A DNA stretch of 38,720 bases from a virus, in the IMG/VR virus record IMGVR_UViG_3300021963_000007. The stretch is one strand, 5' to 3'. The first letter of the stretch is position 1. Every line of letters starts with the position of its first letter. Of the stretch, positions 3,403 to 38,720 are shown piece after piece. The notes beneath the pieces are model-generated. The model worked only from the letters and a program-made list of their open reading frames with translations. It did not search any database and was not told the origin of the DNA. Both the position numbers and the translations under genes were made by a program.

Positions 3403-3431
3403 TTGACGGCATGGCGGGCAATCTCTACACT
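3403..3431 (+). promoter_or_regulatory. Sigma70-like promoter P3: TTGACG-17 nt-TACACT
   Basis: -35 at 3403-3408 and -10 at 3426-3431. The leader CTCACCAACCGCAACCGAGGACCCG is identical to that of P2. Confidence 0.7.
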
Positions 3432-3463
3432 TCCCCTCACCAACCGCAACCGAGGACCCGACC

Positions 3464-3733
3464 ATGAGCAAGCCCGACCTGATTCGCCAGACTTTGCTGG
3501 ACCACTTCATTGAGACCGGAAAGCCGCTGCTGATCAGCGAGCTGGTAACGATGTGCAAGGCCAGCCGCCAGACCGTCAAAGACGCCATCTGGGACCGCTC
3601 CTACGACTTCGACTTTTGCGACATTGAGGTGTGGAGCGGCAGCAGTTGGAATGGCCGCTACCGCGTTTGCCAAGGCGCGCAGCCGTCCCGCCGGTATCTT
3701 GCCAGCATTATCAAAGCCGCCCGCGGCGCCTAA
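3464..3733 (+). CDS. Putative winged-helix DNA-binding protein (89 aa)
   Basis: Track ORF with the motif at 3450-3460. The N-terminal segment IRQTLLDHFIETGKPLLISELVTMCKASRQTVKDAIWD looks like an HTH. Confidence 0.6.
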   Translation: MSKPDLIRQTLLDHFIETGKPLLISELVTMCKASRQTVKDAIWDRSYDFDFCDIEVWSGSSWNGRYRVCQGAQPSRRYLASIIKAARGA

Positions 3734-11280: not shown

Positions 11281-11577
11281 ATGAAAACGGTACTCGAAAC
11301 GACAGCGACAACCGCAAAAACGCTGGTCAGCGACGCGCACGAGGACGGCCGCGTGGTCCACGTTTCGCAGCAGGATGTAGCGCCGATCATCGACTTCGCG
11401 CGAGCTCGTCAGGACCACGGTAAATGGGATTCTGAGATGAAACCCGTGGCCGAAATCCCGATGGTGATCGTCGAGCAGATGATGCGCGACGGTAGCTGGA
11501 ACGACCCGGCCGCGGTGAAGCGCTGGTTAAATGACCCGCAAAACGACTGCTTCCGGATTTGGCGGGGCCGCGTGTGA
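11281..11577 (+). CDS. Hypothetical head-module protein (98 aa)
   Basis: Track ORF with GGGGGG 4 nt upstream of the ATG. Confidence 0.7.
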   Translation: MKTVLETTATTAKTLVSDAHEDGRVVHVSQQDVAPIIDFARARQDHGKWDSEMKPVAEIPMVIVEQMMRDGSWNDPAAVKRWLNDPQNDCFRIWRGRV

Positions 11578-12191
11578 TCACCAACTACGCGACCCTTAAA
11601 GCCGCGGTAGCGGACTGGCTTAACCGGACCGACCTCACCGACCAGATCCCGACTTTTATCCAGCTCGCCGAAGCTGGGCTCAATCGCGACATGCGAATCC
11701 GCCCAATGGTCGTCCGCGCGGACGCCACAATCGACTCGCAGTACACCACGCTGCCGCTCGATTACCTCGAGATGACGACGCTGTACCTGCGCACCAGCCC
11801 GGTCACTAAGCTGCAATTCCTGACGCAGGAAGAGATGCAGCTCAAAAAGAGCCAAGGTTACCCGACCAGCGGCACGCCCCGATATTTTTCTGTCGTCGGC
11901 GCCTCGATGGAGGTGCTGCCGGCGCCAGACTCCGCGCAGACCGCGGAGATGATCTACTACGGCAAAACGCCGACCCTATCCGAGTCCAACACGACCAATT
12001 GGCTACTGACCGCGCACCCGGACATCTATCTGTGGGCGTCGCTCATCGCAAGCGCGCCATACCTGCGCGATGACGGCCGCATCGAAACGTGGCGCGGCCT
12101 GTTGGGCGCTGCGATGGATAGTCTGGTGCTGGCCAACTCCCGGCAGGAGTTTAGCGGCGGCGTTGTTAAGATTCGGTCGAGGTCCTACTGA
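11574..12191 (+). CDS. Head-tail adaptor / head-completion candidate (about 205 aa); start GTG 11574 or TTG 11559
   Basis: Frame of track ORF 11559..12191. GTG 11574 overlaps the upstream TGA. The N-terminal ITNYATLKAAVADWLNRTDL pattern resembles adaptor-type proteins I recall from podoviruses. Confidence 0.5.
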   Translation: MITNYATLKAAVADWLNRTDLTDQIPTFIQLAEAGLNRDMRIRPMVVRADATIDSQYTTLPLDYLEMTTLYLRTSPVTKLQFLTQEEMQLKKSQGYPTSGTPRYFSVVGASMEVLPAPDSAQTAEMIYYGKTPTLSESNTTNWLLTAHPDIYLWASLIASAPYLRDDGRIETWRGLLGAAMDSLVLANSRQEFSGGVVKIRSRSY

Positions 12192-12577
12192 TGGCCGGCT
12201 CCTACACCGATTATCTTGAGAACGCAGTGGTGCAGCATGTTTTCTGTGGCGTTCCCTACACGCCAGCAGGCACGCTTTATGTCGCCGCCTACAGCACGTT
12301 GCCGACAGATTCCGGTGGCGGTGTAGAGCTCACCGGAACTAATTACGCTCGACGCCCGATTACGTTTTCTGCGACGGGGTCCGCTGCTAGCAACGTCTCC
12401 GACATAGCATTCGCCGCAGCGGGAAGTGCATGGGGCACCGTTGTTGGCTTTGGGATTTTCGATTCGCTTTCATCCGGTAATTTGTTGGCATGGGGAGACA
12501 TAGCAGTCGCGCGGACAGTTTTCACGAACGACGTGCTATTGATCCCTGCCGGCGCCGTCACGATTACACAGTCTTAG
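12191..12577 (+). CDS. Virion-associated protein, paralogue 1 (128 aa)
   Basis: Track ORF. It shares the motifs LEN....F, TLY, P.D.GGG.E..G..YAR, WGT...FGIFD and GNLL with the next gene. Confidence 0.7.
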   Translation: MAGSYTDYLENAVVQHVFCGVPYTPAGTLYVAAYSTLPTDSGGGVELTGTNYARRPITFSATGSAASNVSDIAFAAAGSAWGTVVGFGIFDSLSSGNLLAWGDIAVARTVFTNDVLLIPAGAVTITQS

Positions 12578-12589
12578 TAGAGGGACAAC

Positions 12590-13060
12590 ATGGCCGCTTT
12601 TTCCAATTTTCTCGAAAACAAGTTGATCGACTGGCTGTTTCGCGCCCAAGCAATCGGCATTACGGGGGCATCCGCAGCGGCCGGGACTGGCCCGGCCACG
12701 CTGTATGCCGGGCTCTATACCTCGGCCCCTTCAGACGCAGGCGGCGGCACCGAGGTGTCTGGGGGCTCGTATGCTCGCGTCGCCATTACGTCGAGCCTTT
12801 CCAATTGGGCGGGGACGCAAGCGGCAGCGTCGACTACCGTTTCGTCAGGGACATCCGGGACTACCAGCAATAATGGGTCTGTGACGTTTCCGGTCCCGAC
12901 AGCCAATTGGGGCACCATCACGTCTTTTGGGATTTTTGATGCTGCGACCGGGGGCAATCTGCTGATCTATGGCACGTTGACGACATCTAAAACGGTCAAC
13001 AACGGCGACGCGGCGCCGACGTTTCCTGCGGCGGCGCTTAGCGTCCAGATAGACAACTAA
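12590..13060 (+). CDS. Virion-associated protein, paralogue 2 (156 aa)
   Basis: Track ORF with a GGGA Shine-Dalgarno sequence. It has the same motif set as 12191..12577, plus an inserted S/T/G-rich segment. Confidence 0.7.
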   Translation: MAAFSNFLENKLIDWLFRAQAIGITGASAAAGTGPATLYAGLYTSAPSDAGGGTEVSGGSYARVAITSSLSNWAGTQAAASTTVSSGTSGTTSNNGSVTFPVPTANWGTITSFGIFDAATGGNLLIYGTLTTSKTVNNGDAAPTFPAAALSVQIDN

Positions 13061-13062
13061 CC

Positions 13063-14199
13063 ATGGCGCTAGTTGTTGCAGATCGCGTACAGGAGACCAC
13101 TACCACTACTGGCACGGGCACTATTACGCTCGCAGGCGCGGTGTCCGGGTTTCAGTCTTTTGCAACAATTGGCAATGCCAACACGACGTATTACTGCGTC
13201 ACCAGTGGGGCCAACTGGGAAGTCGGGATTGGGACTTACACCGCTTCCGGCACTACGCTTGCCCGCACCACTATCCTAGCGTCATCCGCCGCTGGCGCGG
13301 CCATCACCCTCGCCGGTACGTCCAACGTCTTCTGCGTCTATCCAGCCAGTAAAGCGGTCTACGAAGACGCCAGCGGTAATATTGCGGGGTATCCGTTCAC
13401 TGCGGGGACGATTAATAGCACTACGATAGGCGCTACCACACCCTCGACTGGTGAATTTACCACTCTCGCTACTGGTGGCGTGGCTGTTGCCGGGTATTCG
13501 TTCACCTCGCGGTCCACCGGACTTACAAACGCATATTTTGTTGATACCGATGCTGGCGTGAACGGTATGAACATCAATTTTCTGAAAAACAGCGCTTCTC
13601 CAGCGGCATCAGACGACATCGCACTTTTGCGTTTTTACGGCAATGACAGCACCGCTGTCCAGACCGAATACGTCCGGTTGGCGGCAACAATCGCAGACCC
13701 GACCAACGCAAGTGAGGATGGAACGTTTTCGTTGATCACCGTAAAAGCCGGCGCCCTTGGGGAACGAGTCCGCTACACTTCTGCGGATGGCTTGTACGTT
13801 GTGGACGGTGCGTTTCGCTGCCCCGACGCTTATGCCAGCACCACCGGCACCGCTGCAAACATGGTGATGAGTTCTGCCAGCGGCATCCTTCAGCGCAGTA
13901 CCTCTTCGCTCCGATATAAAAACTCAGTTGCCGACGCAACCTACGGCCTTGCCGAGGTGATGCAACTTCGCCCAGTCACCTACAAAGGCAACAACGACGG
14001 CGACACTGTATTCGGTGGATTTATTGCTGAAGAAGTGCATGACATCGGGTTGTCTCAGTTTGTCCAATACGACGACCAGAACCGCCCCGATGCGCTAGCT
14101 TACGGCAATATGGTTTCTCTGCTGACCAAAGCCATGCAAGAGCAGCAGGCGGTAATCGAAGACCTCAAGGCCCGCGTGGCGGCGCTTGAAGCCAAATGA
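13063..14199 (+). CDS. Tail fibre with a C-terminal intramolecular-chaperone (peptidase S74-type) domain, 378 aa
   Basis: Track ORF. The N-terminal ETTTTTGTGTITLAGA...WEVGIGTY is a fibre anchor motif. The C-terminal portion from about nt 13897 is SSLRYKNSV...GFIAEEV...ALAYGNMVSLLTKAMQEQQAVIEDLKARVAALE, which is typical of self-cleaving chaperone domains. Confidence 0.8.
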   Translation: MALVVADRVQETTTTTGTGTITLAGAVSGFQSFATIGNANTTYYCVTSGANWEVGIGTYTASGTTLARTTILASSAAGAAITLAGTSNVFCVYPASKAVYEDASGNIAGYPFTAGTINSTTIGATTPSTGEFTTLATGGVAVAGYSFTSRSTGLTNAYFVDTDAGVNGMNINFLKNSASPAASDDIALLRFYGNDSTAVQTEYVRLAATIADPTNASEDGTFSLITVKAGALGERVRYTSADGLYVVDGAFRCPDAYASTTGTAANMVMSSASGILQRSTSSLRYKNSVADATYGLAEVMQLRPVTYKGNNDGDTVFGGFIAEEVHDIGLSQFVQYDDQNRPDALAYGNMVSLLTKAMQEQQAVIEDLKARVAALEAK

Positions 14200-14402
14200 G
14201 TCCAAATGAGCAGTTGTCGGTCTGGGTGACCCTCATTGCTACGATCACGCTGGTTAGTGGTTGCGGATACGACGGAGATTTTCGCTATCCATGCCAAAAT
14301 CCAAAAAACTGGAAAAACGAGGATTGCCAAAAGCCATTTTGTGAGGCGACCGGAACATGCCCAGAACAACTAGCGAAACGACATCAGACGAACAACCTGT
14401 AG
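14196..14402 (+). CDS. Small Cys-rich lipoprotein candidate (68 aa)
   Basis: Track ORF with an ATGA overlap to the fibre gene. It has a signal-like helix ending in the lipobox LVSGC, plus four more Cys residues. Local GC is about 45-50 percent. Confidence 0.6.
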   Translation: MSPNEQLSVWVTLIATITLVSGCGYDGDFRYPCQNPKNWKNEDCQKPFCEATGTCPEQLAKRHQTNNL

Positions 14403-14662
14403 GCAAAACAAGTTCCCGATTGACGCCCGCGGAACTTGATGCTCGTCTTCGATTTATTGTCGGCCTGACGTTAGCCGTAACGATGGTCGGGATTATCGCG
14501 GCGGTTCTTTTTTCATTGATTTTCGTGACTCAGCCGATTGATTCTCAAGCGCCAAACGATGCTGAGTTTTTCAAATTGGTAACCCCTATTGCTACATTTT
14601 TGACGGGGGCACTGAGTGGGATAATGGTGACGAGCGGCGGAAGTAAACGAGGGGACGAATGA
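14357..14662 (+). CDS. Two-TM membrane protein, class II holin-like (up to 101 aa; the start may be TTG 14420)
   Basis: Track ORF. Two hydrophobic helices (FIVGLTLAVTMVGIIAAVLFSLIFV and VTPIATFLTGALSGIMV) are followed by a charged C-terminus. Its stop is ATGA-coupled to the endolysin remnant. Confidence 0.55.
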   Translation: MPRTTSETTSDEQPVGKTSSRLTPAELDARLRFIVGLTLAVTMVGIIAAVLFSLIFVTQPIDSQAPNDAEFFKLVTPIATFLTGALSGIMVTSGGSKRGDE

Positions 14663-14700
14663 CTTTCGAGAAATCTTTCAAGGTGCTTGAAGCCAGATAA
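14659..14700 (+). pseudogene. Remnant of an endolysin 5' end (MTFEKSFKVLEAR-stop)
   Basis: 14659-14688 matches the start of the intact endolysin (16841-16870) at 28 of 30 nt, including the ATGA junction. Homology ends after GTGCTT, and a stop follows at 14698-14700. Confidence 0.8.
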
Positions 14701-15509
14701 TGTTTTCCATCGCGCCATTTTCCGTAGCACCGTTTTCGTCGATTAGAATCGACAATCAGCTTGCGGCAAACGTTTCCGCCGTTGCGTCTGCTGCCGGCGA
14801 CTTGTCCACGTCCATTCAGCTTGCGGCGAACGTTTCCGCCGTTGCGTCTGCTGCCGGCGACTTGTCCACGTCCATTCAGCTTGCGGCGAACGTTTCCGCC
14901 GTTGCGTCTGCTGCCGGCGACTTGTCTACGTCCATCCAACTTGCGGCAGACGTTTTCGCCGTTGCGTCTGTTGCCGGCGACTTATCCACGTCCATCCAAC
15001 TTGCGGCAGACGCCTCCGCCGTTGCGTCTGTTGCCGGCGACTTATCCACGTCCATCCAACTTGCGGCAGACGCCTCCGCCGTTGCGTCCGCTGCCGGCGA
15101 CTTGTTTACGTTCAAGCCGATTGCGGCAGACGTTTATGCTGTTGCGTCAGCAAGTGCCACCTTAGTTTCCGCCGTATTGATAGACGGCAGCGCGCTGATT
15201 GTAGCTAGTGCTATCGCGCAGCTTGCCGAGGTTAGCGGGCCGGTAGACATTGCGGGCCCGGCAACTGTGTCGGGAAGCGCTATAGTTTTAATCGGCAGTG
15301 GTGAGTGTTCAGTTTACGCCGGAAGCGTTGCCACTATCCAATGGCTTCCCGTAATTGATACCGGCGAATCATGGGGCCCGATTGCAACGTCTGCGGCGAC
15401 TTGGACCCCCCAGACCGCGCCAATTGATCCGTGGACCGCGCAGGCGACCCCGGCCGAGACGTGGACCGCGCAAACAGTACCACCGGGCGGCTGGTCCGCC
15501 GCCGCATAA
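14700..15509 (+). CDS. Repeat-containing fibre-region protein (269 aa) with 20-aa tandem repeats and a Trp-periodic C-terminus
   Basis: Track ORF. The unit LAANVSAVASAAGDLSTSIQ recurs about 6.5 times. The C-terminus is WGPIATSAATWTPQTAPIDPWTAQATPAETWTAQTVPPGGW. Confidence 0.7.
   Translation: MFSIAPFSVAPFSSIRIDNQLAANVSAVASAAGDLSTSIQLAANVSAVASAAGDLSTSIQLAANVSAVASAAGDLSTSIQLAADVFAVASVAGDLSTSIQLAADASAVASVAGDLSTSIQLAADASAVASAAGDLFTFKPIAADVYAVASASATLVSAVLIDGSALIVASAIAQLAEVSGPVDIAGPATVSGSAIVLIGSGECSVYAGSVATIQWLPVIDTGESWGPIATSAATWTPQTAPIDPWTAQATPAETWTAQTVPPGGWSAAA
14757..15150 (+). repeat. 60-bp tandem repeat, about 6.5 copies, in frame
   Basis: Units are phased exactly with the 60-nt sequence lines 14761, 14821, 14881, 14941, 15001, 15061 and 15121. 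Copies 1-2 differ at 1 nt, and later copies diverge progressively. Confidence 0.95.
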
Positions 15510-15521
15510 AGAGGGCCTCCG

Positions 15522-16337
15522 ATGGCAGATACCACTACCACCAACCTGTCGCTGACCAAACCGGAGGTTGGTGCCAGCGCGGACACATGGGGCGCTAAGC
15601 TCAACACCGACTTCGACCTGCTTGATGCCATCTTTACCGCGGCCGGGACGGGCACGTCGGTTGGCATCAACATCGGCGCCGGCAAAAAGATTGTCATCAC
15701 CGGCAGCATCGAAACAAACGCCATTGCCGAGCGCACCGCGGCGTCGGGCGTAACAATCGACGGGGCCCTGCTGAAAGACGGTGGGGCCGAGCTCACCACG
15801 CTGAAGGTCACGACAGGCGCCACGGCTGACCTGCCGATGGGCGGGTTCAAGGTCACCGGGCTCGCGGCGCCAACGGCCGGCACCGACGCGGTCACCAAGA
15901 CCTACGCCGACACCGCAAGCGGCTTGCAGTTTGTTTCCGGCAACCAGACGCTGTTCCGGCCCAGCGCGGCCGGCACGGGCTCGGTGCCCACCGGGTGGAC
16001 GATTGCCGCGCAGACCAACAAAGGCCTGCGAATTGTTTCCGCGACCCCCAGCTCCGGTGGCACGGACACATGGACCACCGTTTTCTCGGCCGCCAAGACC
16101 ACCGACTCAACGACGCTGACCGCGGCACAGTCTGGTATGCCCGCGCACACACACAACTACGACAAGGTGAGCTTTCCCGCAGGGGCCACGCTTGGTGGCG
16201 ATAACAGCGACTACGGGTTTACCTATACCGCGACCGCGTCCTCGCAGGCCGCCGCACAAAATGCGTCCAGCGGCCACACCCATCCTATGACGATGGATTT
16301 GCAGTACTACGACATGCACGTCATCACCAAGACCTAG
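15522..16337 (+). CDS. Tail fibre protein (271 aa)
   Basis: Track ORF. The N-terminal [27 protein letters not shown] and [25 protein letters not shown] are classic fibre motifs. His-rich C-terminal motifs (PAHTHNY, SGHTHPM) resemble tail-collar domains. Confidence 0.8.
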
Positions 16338-16342
16338 CCGCC

Positions 16343-16627
16343 ATGAAAACCATCTGCCCCCTGATTAAAGACGAATGCGCCGAGCATGCGTGCTGCTGGC
16401 ACATCCACCTGCAAGGCCAGCACCCGCAGACCGGAGAGACCCTCGACCGATACACCTGCGCCATTGCAGCCATGCCGATGCTGCTGGTGGAGACCGCTAG
16501 GCAGGGCCGGGACGCGGCCTCTCGCGTTGACAATTTGCGCGAGCTTGCAGCGCAGGCCATTAAATCATCCGCGCTGCAAAAGCCCACTCCGGAGCTGCTG
16601 AGACTCATCGGGGTGTCGGATGGCTGA
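16343..16627 (+). CDS. Hypothetical Cys/His-rich protein (94 aa)
   Basis: Track ORF with the N-terminal cluster CPLIKDECAEHACCWHIH. Confidence 0.65.
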   Translation: MKTICPLIKDECAEHACCWHIHLQGQHPQTGETLDRYTCAIAAMPMLLVETARQGRDAASRVDNLRELAAQAIKSSALQKPTPELLRLIGVSDG

Positions 16628-16844
16628 GCACCCGGATTGGCGGCAGAACGACATCGAACTGGCGATGTTGCGAAAGGACGTGGAGCTGCTCACCGACCGG
16701 GTGGGTGAGCTGACCAATCAGGTGAGCGGGCTCGTGCGAGCTTGGGAGACGGCCGGCTATATCGTCAGCATCGTGAAGTGGGCCGCGGGTCTTGCATCGG
16801 CCGCGGCCGTTGTGGCGGCGGCACTTAAGGGGTTCGGCAAATGA
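16620..16844 (+). CDS. Lysis-associated membrane protein, holin candidate (74 aa, single C-terminal TM)
   Basis: Track ORF with the hydrophobic segment YIVSIVKWAAGLASAAAVVAAAL. Its stop is ATGA-coupled to the endolysin start. Confidence 0.5.
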   Translation: MAEHPDWRQNDIELAMLRKDVELLTDRVGELTNQVSGLVRAWETAGYIVSIVKWAAGLASAAAVVAAALKGFGK

Positions 16845-17347
16845 CGTTCGAGGAATCTTTCAAGGTGCTTATCGGCCACGAAGGCGGCTACAGCGACGAC
16901 CGCAACGACCCCGGCAATTGGACTGGCGGCATAGTTGGCTCTGGCCAACTGCTGGGCACCAAGTATGGCATCGCGGCCAACACCTACCCGCAGGAAGACA
17001 TTAAAGGGCTGACGCTAGACCGAGCGCAGCAGATTTATCGCCGCGACTACTGGGACAAACTTCACGCGGACGAGCTTCCGAAACAGGTGCGTTTTGCGGT
17101 TTTCGACGCGGCCGTAAACTCTGGCACCGGGCAGGCCGCAAAATGGTTGCAGCGAGCTGTTGGGGTTCGGGACGACGGGATTATCGGCCCCGGTACACTG
17201 GCCGCGGTGCGGGCGATGGACCAGTACAAACTGGCCGCGGTGTTCATCGGGCAGCGCCTGCGCTTCATGGCGGACCTAAAAGTTTTCGACCGATATGGCA
17301 AAGGGTGGTCCCGGCGGATTGCCGACAATTTGATTAACCTACCGTAG
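16841..17347 (+). CDS. Endolysin: glycoside hydrolase family 108 domain plus a C-terminal peptidoglycan-binding domain (168 aa)
   Basis: Track ORF. It has the N-terminal GHEGGYSDDRNDPGNWTGG signature with the catalytic Glu, and a C-terminal DGIIGPGTLAAV motif. Confidence 0.85.
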   Translation: MTFEESFKVLIGHEGGYSDDRNDPGNWTGGIVGSGQLLGTKYGIAANTYPQEDIKGLTLDRAQQIYRRDYWDKLHADELPKQVRFAVFDAAVNSGTGQAAKWLQRAVGVRDDGIIGPGTLAAVRAMDQYKLAAVFIGQRLRFMADLKVFDRYGKGWSRRIADNLINLP

Positions 17348-17355
17348 GGGTGCGC

Positions 17356-17520
17356 ATGAAATACGTTTTTGCCCGACTGAAAGAGCCTTCGACGTGGAAG
17401 GGCGCGGCGCTGTTGGCTGGCGCATTCGGCCTGCATGTCCACCCGGACGCAATTGCGCAGATCGGCACCGCGGTCGGCGCCGCAATCTCAGTGGTTGAAA
17501 TCCTGCGCAAAGAAACCTGA
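17356..17520 (+). CDS. Small membrane protein (54 aa), lysis-associated candidate
   Basis: Not in the track because it is under 60 aa. Hand translation gives MKYVFARLKEPSTWKGAALLAGAFGLHVHPDAIAQIGTAVGAAISVVEILRKET. GGGG lies 5 nt upstream. It has two hydrophobic stretches. Confidence 0.6.
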   Translation: MKYVFARLKEPSTWKGAALLAGAFGLHVHPDAIAQIGTAVGAAISVVEILRKET

Positions 17521-19010
17521 TGGCGCTGGTCCCGCTTAAACTCCCCGCAGGGGTCGTTCGCAACGGCACACAATATTCTGTGGGTGGCCGTTGGTTTGAC
17601 GCAAACCTCGTGCGGTGGTCCAGCGGGATGATGCTACCGATTGGCGGGTGGCAGAGACAAACGGCAACGACATTCACGGGTGTTTGCCGTGGTCTTTTTT
17701 CGTGGCGCTCGTTGGGGATTCAGCGCTATCTGGCAGTCGGGACCAACAGCAAGCTGTATGCGTGGAACGACTCCGGGACGCTGTACGACATCACCCCGGC
17801 CGGGCTGATTGCCGGTCGCGTCGACGCGGTGTACGGCCTCGGCTACGGCACCGGCCCGTTCGGCGCCAGCACGTTCGGCACCGCCCGGGCCGCATCTGGC
17901 GGCGCTATTTTGGACGTGGCGACGTGGTCTTTCGACACATGGGGCGAGTATCTGGTAGCGGTGGCGCCTCACAACGGCACCATCTTCGAGTGGGCGCTCA
18001 ACCCGGCCAGCGTGGCGACGGCCGTTACGAATGCCCCAACGTCGAACCTTGGCGTCATCGTGACGCCAGAGCGGCATCTGGTCGCGCTTGGGGCAGGTGG
18101 CAACGGCCGCAAGGTTCAGTGGTCCTCGCAAGAGGACCGCAACCAGTGGACGGTCACGGCGACGACAACGGCCGGGGATCAGGAACTGCAAACCAGCGGC
18201 ACGATTAAGGCCGCGCGCCGCGTCCGCGGTCAGACCTTAATTGTCACCGACGTTGATGCGCACATCATGACCTATGTCGGGTTGCCATACATATACGGAT
18301 TCGAGCGGGTCGGGTCGTTTTGCGGCGCTGTTGGCGCTAACGCTATCGCGGCCGGCGATACGTTTGCGGTCTGGATGGGGGCGGACAATTTTTACAAATA
18401 TGACGGCGCTGCTGGGATTTTGCCGTGCGATGTTCGCGATTATGTTTTCGGCGACATCAACACCAACCAGATCAGCAAAGTTTACGCTGGCGCTAACCCA
18501 CAGCACTCCGAAATATGGTGGTTTTACCCTAGCGCATCCTCGACCGAAAATGACCGGTATGTGCTCTGGAATTATCGCGAAAACCACTGGAGTATCGGCC
18601 AGCTGGCGCGCACCGCGTGGACCGCGGGCGGCATCTTCCGCTACCCGTTCGCGGCCAGCACTGATGGCTACGTCTACTCGCACGAGCAGGGCTGGACCGC
18701 GGCCAACACGCCGTTATTGAGCGCCCGGTATGCGGAGTCCGGCGCCATTGAAATCGGCAATGGTGACGCGGTCGCGGTGGTGACCAAACTCATCCCGGAC
18801 GAAAAAACGCAGGGGCAGGTGACCATGTCGTTCAAAACCCGATTCACGCCCAACGGGCCCGAGTCCACGTTCGGTCCGTATCCATTGGACGACTACACCG
18901 ACGTGCGTTTTACCGGACGGCAAGCGGCCGTGCGCGTGACTGGTGCTGCTGACGCCGATTGGCGCGTCGGCACGCCGCGCGTAGAGGCAACGACCGGGGG
19001 CGGCCGATGA
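17520..19010 (+). CDS. Tail structural protein (496 aa; tail tubular/nozzle candidate)
   Basis: Track ORF with a TGATG junction. Its composition is beta-rich and W/G/T-rich. The functional assignment rests on position only. Confidence 0.55.
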   Translation: MALVPLKLPAGVVRNGTQYSVGGRWFDANLVRWSSGMMLPIGGWQRQTATTFTGVCRGLFSWRSLGIQRYLAVGTNSKLYAWNDSGTLYDITPAGLIAGRVDAVYGLGYGTGPFGASTFGTARAASGGAILDVATWSFDTWGEYLVAVAPHNGTIFEWALNPASVATAVTNAPTSNLGVIVTPERHLVALGAGGNGRKVQWSSQEDRNQWTVTATTTAGDQELQTSGTIKAARRVRGQTLIVTDVDAHIMTYVGLPYIYGFERVGSFCGAVGANAIAAGDTFAVWMGADNFYKYDGAAGILPCDVRDYVFGDINTNQISKVYAGANPQHSEIWWFYPSASSTENDRYVLWNYRENHWSIGQLARTAWTAGGIFRYPFAASTDGYVYSHEQGWTAANTPLLSARYAESGAIEIGNGDAVAVVTKLIPDEKTQGQVTMSFKTRFTPNGPESTFGPYPLDDYTDVRFTGRQAAVRVTGAADADWRVGTPRVEATTGGGR

Positions 19011-27157: not shown

Positions 27158-27883
27158 CTAACCGCAGGTGTGGTGCTCGACAATCACCGAGGTGATTTTC
27201 GGGCGCTGGATAATGGTCTGCGGGACCCCCTCGCGCTCGCCGTGCTCTTTGACCGTGGCCTTCATGGTGACGCGGGTGCCGGCCTTGGCCGCGACGGTCG
27301 AGTAATGGTTCTCCACATGCCCGGAGTACACGCCGCGGTACGCTTTGCCTTCGGCATCGCGGGCCAGTTCGCGGTAAACCCACACGACTTGCTGCTGTAT
27401 CTCGGCCGCACCCTTGTATACAACGATGTTCCCCGCCGCGTCGCGCATGATGTAGATGTAAGCGGTTTCCATGCGCGCGCCATAGCCGAAGCCGGGGCGC
27501 TCGAACGTGTGGACGTGCTGCACGGTCAGCTCGAAGTCCTGACGCTGGCCCACGACGCCGACGTGGCCTTTGTCGAGGTCCGCCGCGATGCGCTGGGCCT
27601 TGCGCTCGACCTTGTCTCGCTCGCGATACCAATCGTCGACCATCATCTGCTCGACGCAGGCGACCTGCTTTTCGGACAGTTTGCCGTACTGGTCGAGCGA
27701 CCCGGCCAGCTTGCCGCAAAACTCGTTGCGACCTTCGTTCTCGATCAGCCAGTCGGTGACGTGGTTGGCCCACGCGTTAAACGTCTTGCGGGCGTTCATC
27801 AGGATGTTGCGCTTCACGGCCGCGCCATATGCGGCTTCGTTTTCGATCCACTTCTGGCCGGGAATGGGGAAGCGATTGCTCAT
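27158..27883 (-). CDS. Hypothetical early protein (241 aa), possibly with a C-terminal beta-barrel/OB-like domain
   Basis: Track ORF. The ATG lies exactly 3 nt after CCGAGGACCCG (complement of 27887-27897). The amino-acid composition is balanced. No family recognised. Confidence 0.75.
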   Translation of the reverse strand: MSNRFPIPGQKWIENEAAYGAAVKRNILMNARKTFNAWANHVTDWLIENEGRNEFCGKLAGSLDQYGKLSEKQVACVEQMMVDDWYRERDKVERKAQRIAADLDKGHVGVVGQRQDFELTVQHVHTFERPGFGYGARMETAYIYIMRDAAGNIVVYKGAAEIQQQVVWVYRELARDAEGKAYRGVYSGHVENHYSTVAAKAGTRVTMKATVKEHGEREGVPQTIIQRPKITSVIVEHHTCG

Positions 27884-27910
27884 GTTCGGGTCCTCGGTGT
27901 TGGTTGCTAG

Positions 27911-27958: not shown

Positions 27959-28195
27959 TTAAAACGGGCAGTCCATATCGACCTCAACGTCGGCAGCTTC
28001 CCACGCCTCGCATTGTTCGTAAAAACCGTCATCTTCCGGGTGACGAACCGCCGGGCCGGCGTAAAACGGGTTAGCCTGCCACGTGTCGTAATCCGTGAGG
28101 ATCCACGCCTGTTCAGGGCGCTCGCGACCGACGTTGCAAGCGTACTCACGGCAGGCATCATCTTCAGTGGCCAGTTGGTCGTGCGGGTAATTCAT
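27959..28195 (-). CDS. Small acidic early protein (78 aa)
   Basis: Track ORF, with CCGAGGACCCG (complement of 28199-28209) 3 nt before the ATG. Strongly D/E-rich. Confidence 0.75.
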   Translation of the reverse strand: MNYPHDQLATEDDACREYACNVGRERPEQAWILTDYDTWQANPFYAGPAVRHPEDDGFYEQCEAWEAADVEVDMDCPF

Positions 28196-28226
28196 GTTCG
28201 GGTCCTCGGTGTTGGTTGGTTCGGTA

Positions 28227-36224: not shown

Positions 36225-38615
36225 GTGAGAGCAGAACAACTATTTTCGGCGGGGTTTACGGACCTCGTCAGCGTGGCGCCTCCGGGCGCCGCGTTGTCTC
36301 CGGCTAGCAATATCAAGCCGGATGCGCTGGGCAAGGCGCCAGCGCGATTGGGTGGCGCGGGGTGGGCCGGGTACGACTGGCGCCGCGCCGAGGTGCGTCT
36401 GTCCGATGCGCAGACGATGGACCGCACCGGGGCCAGCATCGGCCTGCGGGCGCGGACCTATCCGGCGCTCGACATCGATGTGCTGGACGAGGACCTCGCC
36501 GCGGTCGTCGAGCGGCTCGCGTTGGAGATACTGGGGCCGGCGCCCTGTCGGATCGGACGCGCCCCCAAGCGGCTGCTGGCCTACCGCTGCTCGACACCGT
36601 TCGGCCGGATGCGGCTGTGGCTGACTGAGGATAGCGGCAAGCGGCATCTGGTCGAGATGCTGGCCGATGGGCAGCAGTACGTCATCGCGGGCACACACGC
36701 CACCACAGGCCGCCCCTACGAGTGGGACGCGGACTTGTGCGAGCTGAGCCCAATGGGCCTGCGCGAGGTCGACCGGGACAAGGTGCAGGCATTCTTTGCC
36801 GCGCTTGAGTCCGAGGTGGATTTTCTGGGGCTCAAGGTCGAGCGAGAGGGCACGGGTGCGGTGGCGATGGCTGGGGATGCGCCTGCGCAGGACTCACTGC
36901 GCGCGCCGTCTCTGGACCTGCTGGCGAGCGCTGTGGCGGCCATGCCCAACGATGCCGCCAACTACGAGGAGTACATCGCGGTGGGCATCGCCATCAAGGC
37001 CGCGGGCGCGGCCGATGAGGGCGCCGCGTTGCAGGTCTATCAGGCATGGGCCGCGCGCTGGCCTGATGGAGACAATGACCCACAAAACGTGGCCCGGGAC
37101 TGGGCGCGCATGCGTTCGCCATACCGGATCGGATGGCAATGGGTGGCGGACCGCGCCGCGCGCTATGGCTGGAACGCGGCCGGGTGGGAGTTCCCGGTGG
37201 AGCCGATTGCGGACGAGGTCGAGAGCCGGGGCACGGTGGAGTACACCGACGCGGCGATGGCGGCGCGGATGGTGCTGGCGCACTCACACGAGGCCAAGCA
37301 CTGCGCCGCGCTGGGCGGCTGGCTGGTCTGGGACGGCTCGCGCTGGGCGCCGGACGAGACGCTGCTGGTGGCGGACTGGGCCGGGGCGCTGCTGCAAGAG
37401 GCCGCGCGCGAGGTGCTGGCCCGGGGCGACTACAAGGCCGAGCGCGCGACAAAGGTGGCCGAGCGGCTGTCGAGCGTGAGCTCGCGCAACAACTGCGAGG
37501 CCTATGCCCGAGCGGACCGCCGGGTGAATGTGCGGGCTGAGCAATTCGACGCGGACCCGATGCTGCTGAACACACCCGGCGGCATCGTGGACCTGCGCAC
37601 CGGGGTGCTGCGCGACCGACACCGGGGCGAGCTGGTGATGCGGGTGGCGGGCGCGGTGCCTGACCGCAAGACGCGGCCGGTGGCGTGGCTGGAGTTCCTG
37701 CGCTGGGCCACGGGCGAGGACGATGCGCTGCTGGGCTACCTGCGGCGGCTGATTGGGTACTGCCTGACCGGGCAGACGCACGAGCAGCACCTGTCGTTCC
37801 TGTTCGGCCCGGGCGGCACTGGCAAGTCGGTTTTTGCGGGGCTGGTGGCGTCGCTGCTGGGGGACTACGCGGTCAAGTCGCAGATGGAGACGTTTGTGGC
37901 TAGCACCGTGGACCGGCACCCGACTGAGCTGGCGCGGTTGCGCGGCGCGCGGTTGGTGTGGGCTAGCGAGACGCAGGACGGCCGGCGATGGGCCGAGGGT
38001 CGCGTCAAGGAATTGACGGGCGGCGAGCCGGTCACCGCGCGGTTCCTGCACCGCGACGAGTTCACCTATGTGCCGCAGTTCAAGCTGGTGTTTTTGGGCA
38101 ACCATCGCCCGGCCATTCGCAACGTCGAGAGCGGCATCAGGCGTCGGCTGCATGTGGTGCCGTTCATCCGGCCGCCTGCTGTGGTCGACCAGACGCTGCC
38201 AGAGCGGCTTAGGGCCGAGCTGCCGGCCATCATGGGCTGGGCGGTCGAGGCGTGCCTAGAGTGGCAGCGCGATGGTCTCCGGCCGCCGCAGGCGGTGCTC
38301 GACGCGACCGACGATTACTGCGAGGAGGAGGACGTGTTCGGGCGTTGGATCGACGACTGCTGCACGGCGGGGCCGGCAGAGTTCGCGACCATTCCCGAGC
38401 TGTTCGAGAGCTGGCGCGGCTGGGCGGTCGAGCAGGGCGAGTACGTTGGGAGCGCCAAGCGGTTGTCGGCCGCGCTCAAGCAGAGGGGATTGCAGGCCGT
38501 GCGGACGCGGGATGCGCGGGCGTTTGCGGGTCTGGCGGTGCGGCTGGGGCCGGGACAACTGGGCCGGGCGGCCGGTGTCGTGGTGCGTGGTGAGTTCGGT
38601 GTCGGTGGCGCGTGA
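36225..38615 (+). CDS. Primase-polymerase (AEP) fused to a P4/D5-type SF3 helicase (796 aa)
   Basis: In-frame GTG 36225 of track ORF 36087..38615, with GAGGGG 5 nt upstream, just after the polymerase stop. AEP motifs are ALDIDVLD and IAGTHATTGRPYEW. There is a central primase C-terminal-like region. Walker A is GPGGTGKS, and KLVFLGNHRP and RRRLHVVPF are typical of the P4-family primase C-terminal domain. Confidence 0.85.
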   Translation: MRAEQLFSAGFTDLVSVAPPGAALSPASNIKPDALGKAPARLGGAGWAGYDWRRAEVRLSDAQTMDRTGASIGLRARTYPALDIDVLDEDLAAVVERLALEILGPAPCRIGRAPKRLLAYRCSTPFGRMRLWLTEDSGKRHLVEMLADGQQYVIAGTHATTGRPYEWDADLCELSPMGLREVDRDKVQAFFAALESEVDFLGLKVEREGTGAVAMAGDAPAQDSLRAPSLDLLASAVAAMPNDAANYEEYIAVGIAIKAAGAADEGAALQVYQAWAARWPDGDNDPQNVARDWARMRSPYRIGWQWVADRAARYGWNAAGWEFPVEPIADEVESRGTVEYTDAAMAARMVLAHSHEAKHCAALGGWLVWDGSRWAPDETLLVADWAGALLQEAAREVLARGDYKAERATKVAERLSSVSSRNNCEAYARADRRVNVRAEQFDADPMLLNTPGGIVDLRTGVLRDRHRGELVMRVAGAVPDRKTRPVAWLEFLRWATGEDDALLGYLRRLIGYCLTGQTHEQHLSFLFGPGGTGKSVFAGLVASLLGDYAVKSQMETFVASTVDRHPTELARLRGARLVWASETQDGRRWAEGRVKELTGGEPVTARFLHRDEFTYVPQFKLVFLGNHRPAIRNVESGIRRRLHVVPFIRPPAVVDQTLPERLRAELPAIMGWAVEACLEWQRDGLRPPQAVLDATDDYCEEEDVFGRWIDDCCTAGPAEFATIPELFESWRGWAVEQGEYVGSAKRLSAALKQRGLQAVRTRDARAFAGLAVRLGPGQLGRAAGVVVRGEFGVGGA

Positions 38616-38720
38616 CTGACGTGACGCATTGTTCCGGAAACTTTTCTCGGCGTGTGACGCAAATGACGCATTGTTCCGGAAACTTTTCCCGGGATGATGC
38701 GCCGTTTTCGGCCGTGTGTG
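38594..38720. repeat. Terminal direct repeat, right copy, identical to 1..127
   Basis: 127/127 identity with the window start, read directly. Confidence 0.95.

Follow-up and report, generated by a model that had tools for sequence, protein, structure and literature searches.

A chimeric 13-codon reading frame in an SU10-like phage genome as the probable joint of a short-homology recombination between an endolysin gene and a tail fiber gene

Upstream of the second of its tail fiber genes, the uncultured SU10-like phage genome recorded in IMG/VR as IMGVR_UViG_3300021963_000007 carries an open reading frame (ORF) of 42 nt that begins like an endolysin gene and ends like a tail fiber gene. This ORF, referred to here as the stub, is the subject of this report, and the window denotes the whole stretch of 38,720 nt that was analyzed. 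The window is a phage genome assembled completely and as a circle, with a unit length of 38,593 bp, in which bases 1-127 are repeated perfectly at 38594-38720, and its structural genes match the Pfam families SU10_portal, SU10_MCP, SU10_adaptor, and Gp80. An earlier note on this DNA had read the stub as the scar of a 2.2-kb tail fiber cassette inserted into a resident holin-endolysin pair. The features that bear on its origin are the following.

13063-14199, + strand: TF1, a tail fiber gene of 378 aa with a C-terminal Peptidase_S74 chaperone domain (Pfam PF13884; PHROG tail fiber matches)
14181-14199, + strand: first copy of the TF1 3′-end repeat (GGCGCTTGAAGCCAAATGA), the left boundary of a 501-nt block; identical to 14682-14698 at 15 of 17 positions
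14196-14402, + strand: lipo68, a small Cys-rich predicted lipoprotein with the lipobox LVSGC; its ATG overlaps the TF1 stop
14357-14662, + strand: memb101, a membrane protein of unknown function (PHROG 25359) with two hydrophobic segments
14659-14700, + strand: the stub, an ORF of 13 codons
14659-14688, + strand: the part of the stub from the endolysin, equal to lysin nt 1-30
14682-14688, + strand: GGTGCTT, a microhomology of 7 nt equal to lysin nt 24-30 and to TF1 nt -19 to -13
14689-14700, + strand: the part of the stub from TF1, GAAGCCAGATAA (EAR-stop); its TAA overlaps the rep269 ATG as TAATG
14700-15509, + strand: rep269, a repeat protein with a Trp-rich C-terminus
16620-16844, + strand: hol74, the holin-like candidate of the backbone lysis cassette
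16841-17347, + strand: lys168, the intact endolysin (GH108 and PG_binding_3), whose first 30 nt (16841-16870) form the second repeat copy

The stub reads MTFEKSFKVLEAR-stop, and the last A of its TAA is the A of the rep269 ATG at 14700. Its first 30 nt (ATGACTTTCGAGAAATCTTTCAAGGTGCTT) agree with the start of lys168 (ATGACGTTCGAGGAATCTTTCAAGGTGCTT) at 28 of 30 positions, the two copies being spaced 2,182 nt apart, and at up to three mismatches these are the only matches to the repeat in the window, with none in 100 dinucleotide-preserving shuffles. At both copies the ATG overlaps the stop of the upstream gene, memb101 or hol74, as ATGA. The 30-nt match, the overlaps, and the list of genes between the copies had been described in the earlier note and hold on re-counting. 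An SD-like (Shine-Dalgarno-like) GAGGGG lies 4 nt ahead of the stub ATG, and the Shine-Dalgarno sequence of rep269 itself is weak. Of a GH108 endolysin (PF05838) the stub keeps codons 1-10 and lacks the catalytic domain, and the intact genes (window 16841-17347; 2049-2555 in the relative L279) match PF05838 or PHROG 315; the stub is thus best described as a remnant of a GH108 endolysin gene and not as a member of the family.

The sequence to the left of the breakpoint has been recovered elsewhere with its lysin complete. Looking up memb101 by exact match yielded two contigs of another type, L279 (ENA ERZ4231614) and L282 (ENA ERZ4231501), in which memb101 is ATGA-coupled to a full GH108 lysin of 168 aa, followed in L279 by p53 and the vsp gene. 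Both agree with the window at 97.6% identity over 14196/14212-14688, an agreement that ends exactly at 14688, directly after GTGCTT. Their lysin starts match the stub at 29 of 30 positions, the difference being an AAA in the stub where L279, L282, and the window lysin have GAA. The arrangement that the earlier note had postulated as ancestral, with 14357-14662 coupled directly to a full endolysin, therefore does exist, and the note was right to regard the stub as a true 5′ endolysin remnant and a recombination scar. For every relative, similarity to the window DNA ends at 14662 or 14688 and resumes at 16838; in the IMG/VR relatives L001-L004, a 78-aa gene separates memb101 from the lysin.

To the right of the breakpoint, the sequence comes from the end of a tail fiber gene. 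In the IMG/VR relatives L083, L088, and L092, a TF1 gene homologous to that of the window ends ...GCGGTGCTTGAAGCCAGATAA (AVLEAR-stop), and a rep-like gene of 318 aa (MFSVAPFSGAPFS...) has an ATG that overlaps this TAA, the TF1 end ...GGTGCTTGAAGCCAGATAA and the rep start together forming TAATG. The rep-like gene is followed by a fiber gene, cys97, p102, memb80, p77, lys168, p56, and vsp. Across the TF1/rep junction, 24 nt (GCTTGAAGCCAGATAATGTTTTCC) of these three relatives are identical to window positions 14685-14708, and therefore the 12 nt after GTGCTT are a TF1 3′ end and TAATG is the native TF1/rep junction. The earlier note had evidently missed this origin, letting a cassette start after GTGCTT with four anonymous codons, which are in fact the last 12 nt of TF1 and native in L083, L088, and L092. 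With a TF1 end at the joint, the right-hand parent was TF1-rep-TF2... and not a free cassette.

The switch between the two parents is abrupt, with L279 and L282 matching up to 14688 and L083, L088, and L092 identical from 14682 on. At this point the parental sequences, in the same codon phase, are ...CAAGGTGCTT|ATCGG in the lysin and ...GCGGTGCTT|GAAGCC in TF1; GGTGCTT is common to both, and the flanking bases differ on each side. The crossover therefore lies inside a microhomology of 7 nt, and the fusion was automatically in frame. A further consequence of a crossover in the TF1 end is a second direct repeat in the window, in which 14181-14197 (GGCGCTTGAAGCCAAAT) matches 14682-14698 (GGTGCTTGAAGCCAGAT) at a spacing of 501 nt. 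The first copy belongs to the window's own TF1, which ends in LEAK-stop, and homologous TF1 genes are present in L083, L092, and L277. The same junction occurs in L276, L277, L278, L280, L281, and L284 and in the window's JGI record, making at least seven assemblies; a 24-mer spanning it was absent from an IMG/VR search, in a collection without the window's own contig.

Which side of the joint is the newcomer can be approached from a pair of relatives that differ at this site. L277, which carries the stub junction, and L092, in which TF1 and rep are contiguous, share 98.3% identity along the full 2185 nt of TF1, and the difference between them here is the block of lipo68, memb101, and stub. 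The GC content of this block is 0.475-0.48 against a genome mean of 0.64 (z = -3.3), the lowest of the genome, and its GC at third codon positions (GC3) is 0.45-0.52, compared with 0.72-0.81 in TF2, cys94, hol74, lys168, MCP, and adaptor. The genes around the block and the fiber region, as far as not yet listed, are these.

11559-12191: adaptor
12191-12577: Gp80
12590-13060: a second Gp80 gene
15522-16337, + strand: TF2, a second tail fiber gene of 271 aa, whose N-terminus MADTTTTN... is conserved family-wide
16343-16627, + strand: cys94, a Cys-rich protein of unknown function with homologues after the fiber gene in L083, L092, L131, and L287
17350-17520, + strand: p56, a small membrane protein with a weak PHROG holin match, which moves together with the lysin in relatives
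17520-19010: vsp496

Dozens of relatives have the order adaptor-Gp80-rep-like-TF2-like-...-holin(s)-lysin-vsp496, and in relatives the rep gene has TF1 or Gp80 as the native neighbor on one side and TF2 on the other. L200, for example, has rep244, TF2, a 101-aa gene, hol77, a 62-aa holin-like gene, Rz/Rz1-like genes, GH108, and vsp. Given this family-wide order, the series rep-TF2-hol-lysin is the backbone, and the imported part is most likely the 0.5-kb membrane protein block and not the 2.2-kb fiber cassette. The polarity proposed in the earlier note, in which the fiber cassette was the donor and the lysis pair the resident, is probably reversed, since the block is the compositional outlier and both composition and synteny place the fiber genes, hol74, and lysin with the backbone. 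Over 14200-14799 the carriers are all about 100% identical, including those whose TF1 genes show just 50-88% identity, which suggests that the block has spread recently as one unit.

A transposon-like insertion of the block was also considered and rejected, there being neither terminal inverted repeats nor mobility genes. The block encodes lipo68 and memb101 only, with no transposase, integrase, or homing endonuclease, and no terminal inverted repeats occur at its ends, where the direct repeat of the TF1 3′ end is the sole flanking repeat.

The intact lysin of the window proves to be a different allele from the truncated one, as judged by its divergence, and not its continuation. It is 72.6% identical to the lysin of L279 and 83.9% identical to that of L282, compared with the 97.6% found for the left block. 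The right-hand 30-nt copy, which the earlier note had seen as a cassette-borne joint, is accordingly the start of the backbone's own lysin. Among most relatives the first 30 nt of GH108 lysin genes are 87-97% identical and the rest of the gene 65-87%, and it is because of this conservation between lineages that the stub still matches the present lysin. The direct repeat was also thought capable of deleting the cassette again; no deletion product between the 30-nt copies was found among the assemblies, which show majority genotypes, and the window's exact lysin occurs there after hol74 only and never after memb101.

The lysin region has a history of exchange of its own. In 100-nt windows, L131, the nearest backbone relative, is about 76-98% identical to the window (mostly >90%) over 15428-16840, about 60-68% over lys-p56 (16841-17519), and about 83-100%, mostly >90%, from 17520 onward. 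The interval from hol74 to p56 holds memb72 and a 156-aa GH108 gene in L131 (compared over 1414-2281), a Peptidase_M15_4 lysin of 115 aa in L287 and L288, and the 168-aa GH108 gene in the window, a pattern that marks lys-p56 as a module swapped at gene boundaries. One long BLAST HSP (high-scoring segment pair) had suggested that the window lysin is itself chimeric, with 142 nt at its 5′ end from the truncated allele's type and a 3′ end of the L131 type; this was rejected, as alignment and sliding identity place the whole of lys-p56 at about 60-68% to L131. Within L279, the 3′ half of the lysin (2217-2559) is 82% identical to the L131 lysin (1761-2103) and the 5′ half resembles L282 (96%). GH108 lysin genes themselves are, to judge from such comparisons, mosaic.

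The stub, in our judgment, is likely to mark the place where two related SU10-like podophages, both with TF1, recombined unequally and illegitimately through a microhomology. One parent (A-type) would have had the order TF1-lipoprotein-memb101-GH108 lysin and the other (T-type) the order TF1-rep-TF2-cys-hol-lysin. During a presumed co-infection, strands would have joined within GGTGCTT, nt 24-30 of the A-type lysin meeting, in phase, the point in the T-type TF1 that lies 12 nt short of its end, and the product would run along the A-type parent up to lysin nt 30, through the last 12 nt of the T-type TF1, and then by way of TAATG into rep269. A single unequal crossover would suffice, and homologous exchange in TF1 together with a microhomology joint would be an equivalent route. 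The net result would be a 501-nt block (lipo68, memb101, stub) placed between TF1 and rep269 and flanked by a 17-nt direct repeat, with the fiber genes, hol74, and lysin as the resident backbone and a small lysis-type membrane protein pair as the import. Phage mosaic joints arise by illegitimate or short-homology recombination, and RecET-type functions recombine stretches of 5-13 bp (PMC2327257).

Several observations weigh against this account. No one contig holds a complete A-type parent, in which TF1-lipo and memb-lysin are coupled directly; its two junctions have been found on different contigs, L003, L276, and L277 for TF-lipo and L279 and L282 for memb-lysin. The T-type parent has been found just with a diverged rep allele (rep318 in L083 and L092), and what lies to the left of the rep269 allele in L131 and L132 was not recovered, as contigs break in the 60-bp repeats. 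Of the cassette carriers that the earlier note had expected, the fiber genes TF2, cys94, and hol74 were indeed found in L131, L132, L287, and L288 (L132 also has part of the repeat protein), and it is their left context that is missing. Two metagenome scans were unproductive, one with the N-terminal peptide of rep269 (600 pattern hits, none confirmed) and one with a degenerate DNA pattern for IAPFS[VA]APFSSIRIDNQ, and a homologous-protein search gave one weak match with full-length rep269 and none with its C-terminal domain; the contig ERZ21982217 has a partial gene of 140 aa, a 133-aa gene, and TF2. Further points against it are that the block, including the stub and the 5′ end of rep269, is about 100% identical in L276 and L277 despite diverged TF1 genes, and that the GC3 of TF1, the Gp80 genes, and rep269 is intermediate (0.59-0.67), for which reason the imported segment may exceed 501 nt. 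The resident arm is probably the fiber and lysin side, an assignment made by composition and synteny and not by a dated phylogeny, and a role of the stub as a translational relay would be pure conjecture.

That the stub is a selected small gene or leader, which hands ribosomes leaving memb101 on to rep269 and TF2 through termination-reinitiation or acts through its peptide, appears unlikely. The in-frame ORF keeps the lysin's strong GAGGGG and its ATGA coupling to memb101, ends at the TAATG native to TF1/rep in L083 and L092, could thereby relay terminating ribosomes to the poorly equipped rep269 start, and is intact in all seven assemblies. Against this, the carriers are about 100% identical across the block, and the conservation of the ORF is therefore uninformative on selection; the in-frame fusion would follow automatically from an in-phase microhomology, and a selected role would be compatible with an origin by recombination and secondary to it. 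It is doubtful, and somewhat less probable still, that the stub is a working relay of ribosomes to rep269 and TF2 and that the nested direct repeats (one of 30 nt at a spacing of 2,182 nt and one of 17 nt at a spacing of 501 nt) regenerate variants without the fiber genes or without the block. If true, the relay and nested repeats could lead to population heterogeneity in host range or lysis.

The model of the earlier note, a two-ended insertion of a 2.2-kb cassette (rep269-TF2-cys94-hol74 and an endolysin start) into a resident memb101-endolysin pair, with the resident lysin continuing to the right of the second copy, is quite improbable. It is consistent with the arrangement in L279 and L282 and with the known contigs that carry fiber genes, and those four genes are exactly what lies between the 30-nt copies. 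The right-hand lysin, however, is far less similar to the L279 and L282 lysins than the left block is to these contigs, and vsp496 and the downstream genes group with the fiber cassette lineage (vsp496 is 97% aa-identical in L131) and not with the A-type genomes (29-45%). The 12 nt past the breakpoint would also require donor sequence that began inside TF1, and the supposedly resident pair is the compositional outlier.

Decay in place, from an ancestor with memb101, a full lysin, rep, and TF2 whose lysin body was deleted after the gain of a second lysin downstream, is very improbable. It was suggested by L069, and L069, L071, L073, L075, and L076 have memb, lysin, W75, TF2-like, hol73-like, and vsp genes and no second lysin; the stub is also in frame. 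The TF1-derived 12 nt make it insufficient as an explanation, since GH108 lysins here end ...NLINLP-stop and the stub has a TF1 end on its 3′ side; in addition, no relative was found with memb101, a GH108 lysin, and rep in a row, and between L277 and L092 it is the whole block that differs, not the body of a lysin. That the junction is a chimera or mis-join made by assembly at a short repeat, which the metagenomic origin and the nearby 30-nt and 60-bp tandem repeats of the kind that break assemblies might bring to mind, is hardly conceivable, because the identical junction appears in at least seven contigs from separate projects, assemblers, and runs (JGI; Logan ERR14822393 and SRR7130819/20; ENA ERZ27251672/3 and ERZ27296343), including three complete genomes of about 38.6 kb.

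The two genes of the block point to a lysis cassette. lipo68 has no Pfam, PHROG, or NCBIfam match, and NCBIfam gave nothing for any small protein of the region; nearly all of 80 IMG/VR loci have it together with a memb101 homologue. In these loci, the memb101 homologues, mostly with an ATGA overlap, are followed in about 35 cases by a GH19-like lysin type, whose 392-aa representative matches Glyco_hydro_19 and Peptidase_M15_3, and in others by a CHAP lysin, GH108 lysins, GTA_holin_3TM-type proteins, or other small proteins. With hydrophobic segments at aa 29-63 and 74-92, memb101 is, as holins are, a small transmembrane protein encoded beside an endolysin in relatives; compared with described families, its sole match is PHROG 25359, with none in Pfam or NCBIfam. 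It may thus be regarded as a holin or antiholin candidate on account of its lysis cassette association in relatives. hol74 probably forms a coiled coil at its N-terminus, judging by eye, and has a single hydrophobic segment at its C-terminal end; its homologues lie upstream of holin, spanin, and lysin genes in L199, L200, and L202.

The first ~57 nt of lipo68 (M..N..LSVWVTLIATxTL; window 14196-14252) are common to memb72 and memb80, which are otherwise different two-TM (transmembrane) proteins. This type of gene start is found at 1414-1470 in L131, at 7529-7585 in L083, and at about 6408 in L081, where memb72 or memb80 precedes the lysin, and it seems to act as a recombination linker, as far as the shared sequence tells. 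The C-terminus of memb72 resembles that of memb101. In the JGI record of the window (3300021962 Ga0222713_10000665; locus L283, 8679-9178), the lipo68-memb101-stub stretch (14196-14662) is without gene calls; memb101 is called in other assemblies, and in a look-up of stored gene calls lipo68 was on record nowhere.

The repeat array of rep269 (14757-15148) consists of 6.5 copies of a 60-bp unit with 91% matches, encoding 20-aa repeats. Its copy number varies between near-identical genomes, with 269 aa in the window and 229 aa in L284, and many short-read contigs end inside it (L132, L276, L277, and L289-L294). Elsewhere in the window, the 127-bp terminal overlap holds a 42-nt tandem repeat at about 28-127 (GACGCATTGTTCCGGAAACTTTTC...), and a leader of ~65 nt is duplicated at 1835-1899 and 3403-3467 (TTGACG, 17 nt, TACACT, then CCTCACCAACCGCAACCGAGGACCCG..CATGA), resembling a promoter and ribosome-binding site ahead of two + strand genes. 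A related CACCGAGGACCCGAACATGA motif lies ahead of two - strand genes, at 27883-27909 and 28195-28221 (reverse strand). Comparison of 12500-18500 with cultured phages by blastn gave no useful relatives, with weak matches (65-70%) on the lysin gene alone.

A distant relative, L069 (7832-11200), shows how the region can be laid out in other members of the group. It has lipo57, memb84, a putative GH19-like lysin (with no Pfam match of its own), a W-repeat protein of 75 aa, and a TF2-like gene, continuing with a 146-aa gene, a hol73-like gene, a 115-aa gene, spanin-like genes of 127 and 85 aa, and vsp. Fiber genes embedded among lysis genes therefore recur in this phage group.

Among known systems, the closest in kind are the mosaic joints that arise by illegitimate or short-homology recombination, of which the lambdoid phages and mycobacteriophages provide examples. 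The mechanism of such joints has been discussed by Martinsohn, Radman & Petit (2008; PMC2327257). As in these cases, relatedness switches abruptly, no site-specific signal is present, the microhomology amounts to a few bases, and the product has been filtered for viability. Most reported joints, however, lie at gene boundaries and leave no readable remnant, whereas this joint falls inside a gene in each parent (lysin codon 10 and TF1 codon -4), has left a chimeric ORF of 13 codons, and has parental junctions that are both recoverable from metagenomes.

The block also resembles morons and accessory islands in being a short, low-GC set of small membrane protein and lipoprotein genes between conserved virion genes, present or absent in the near-isogenic pair L277 and L092. 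A deviant base composition, expected of a moron, is found (GC 0.48 vs. 0.64), and neither a sigma-70-like promoter nor a + strand terminator occurs within 14150-14750; the block genes are translationally coupled to their neighbors. Unlike morons, they derive from another phage's lysis cassette and are not host-interaction genes of unknown source. The third comparison is with ATGA-coupled holin-endolysin cassettes, such as memb101-lysin in L279, L282, and many relatives and hol74-lys168 in the window. The memb101 of the window differs from these in having lost its lysin, and, as it matches no curated holin family, its role is suggested by its neighborhood.

In sum, the joint is a genuine but ordinary instance of phage mosaicism, produced by a known process, and it introduces no new mechanism or kind of element. 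A fragment of a lysis cassette has been carried into the tail fiber region, within an interval from TF1 to the lysin that is a hot spot in this uncultured SU10-like group, where fibers, small membrane proteins, and lysins (GH108, putative GH19-like, GH24-like by eye, and M15_4) are swapped mostly at gene boundaries. With its parental junctions, its 7-nt microhomology, and the L277/L092 pair all drawn from public metagenomes, it is an unusually well-resolved natural case of how phage modules are joined.

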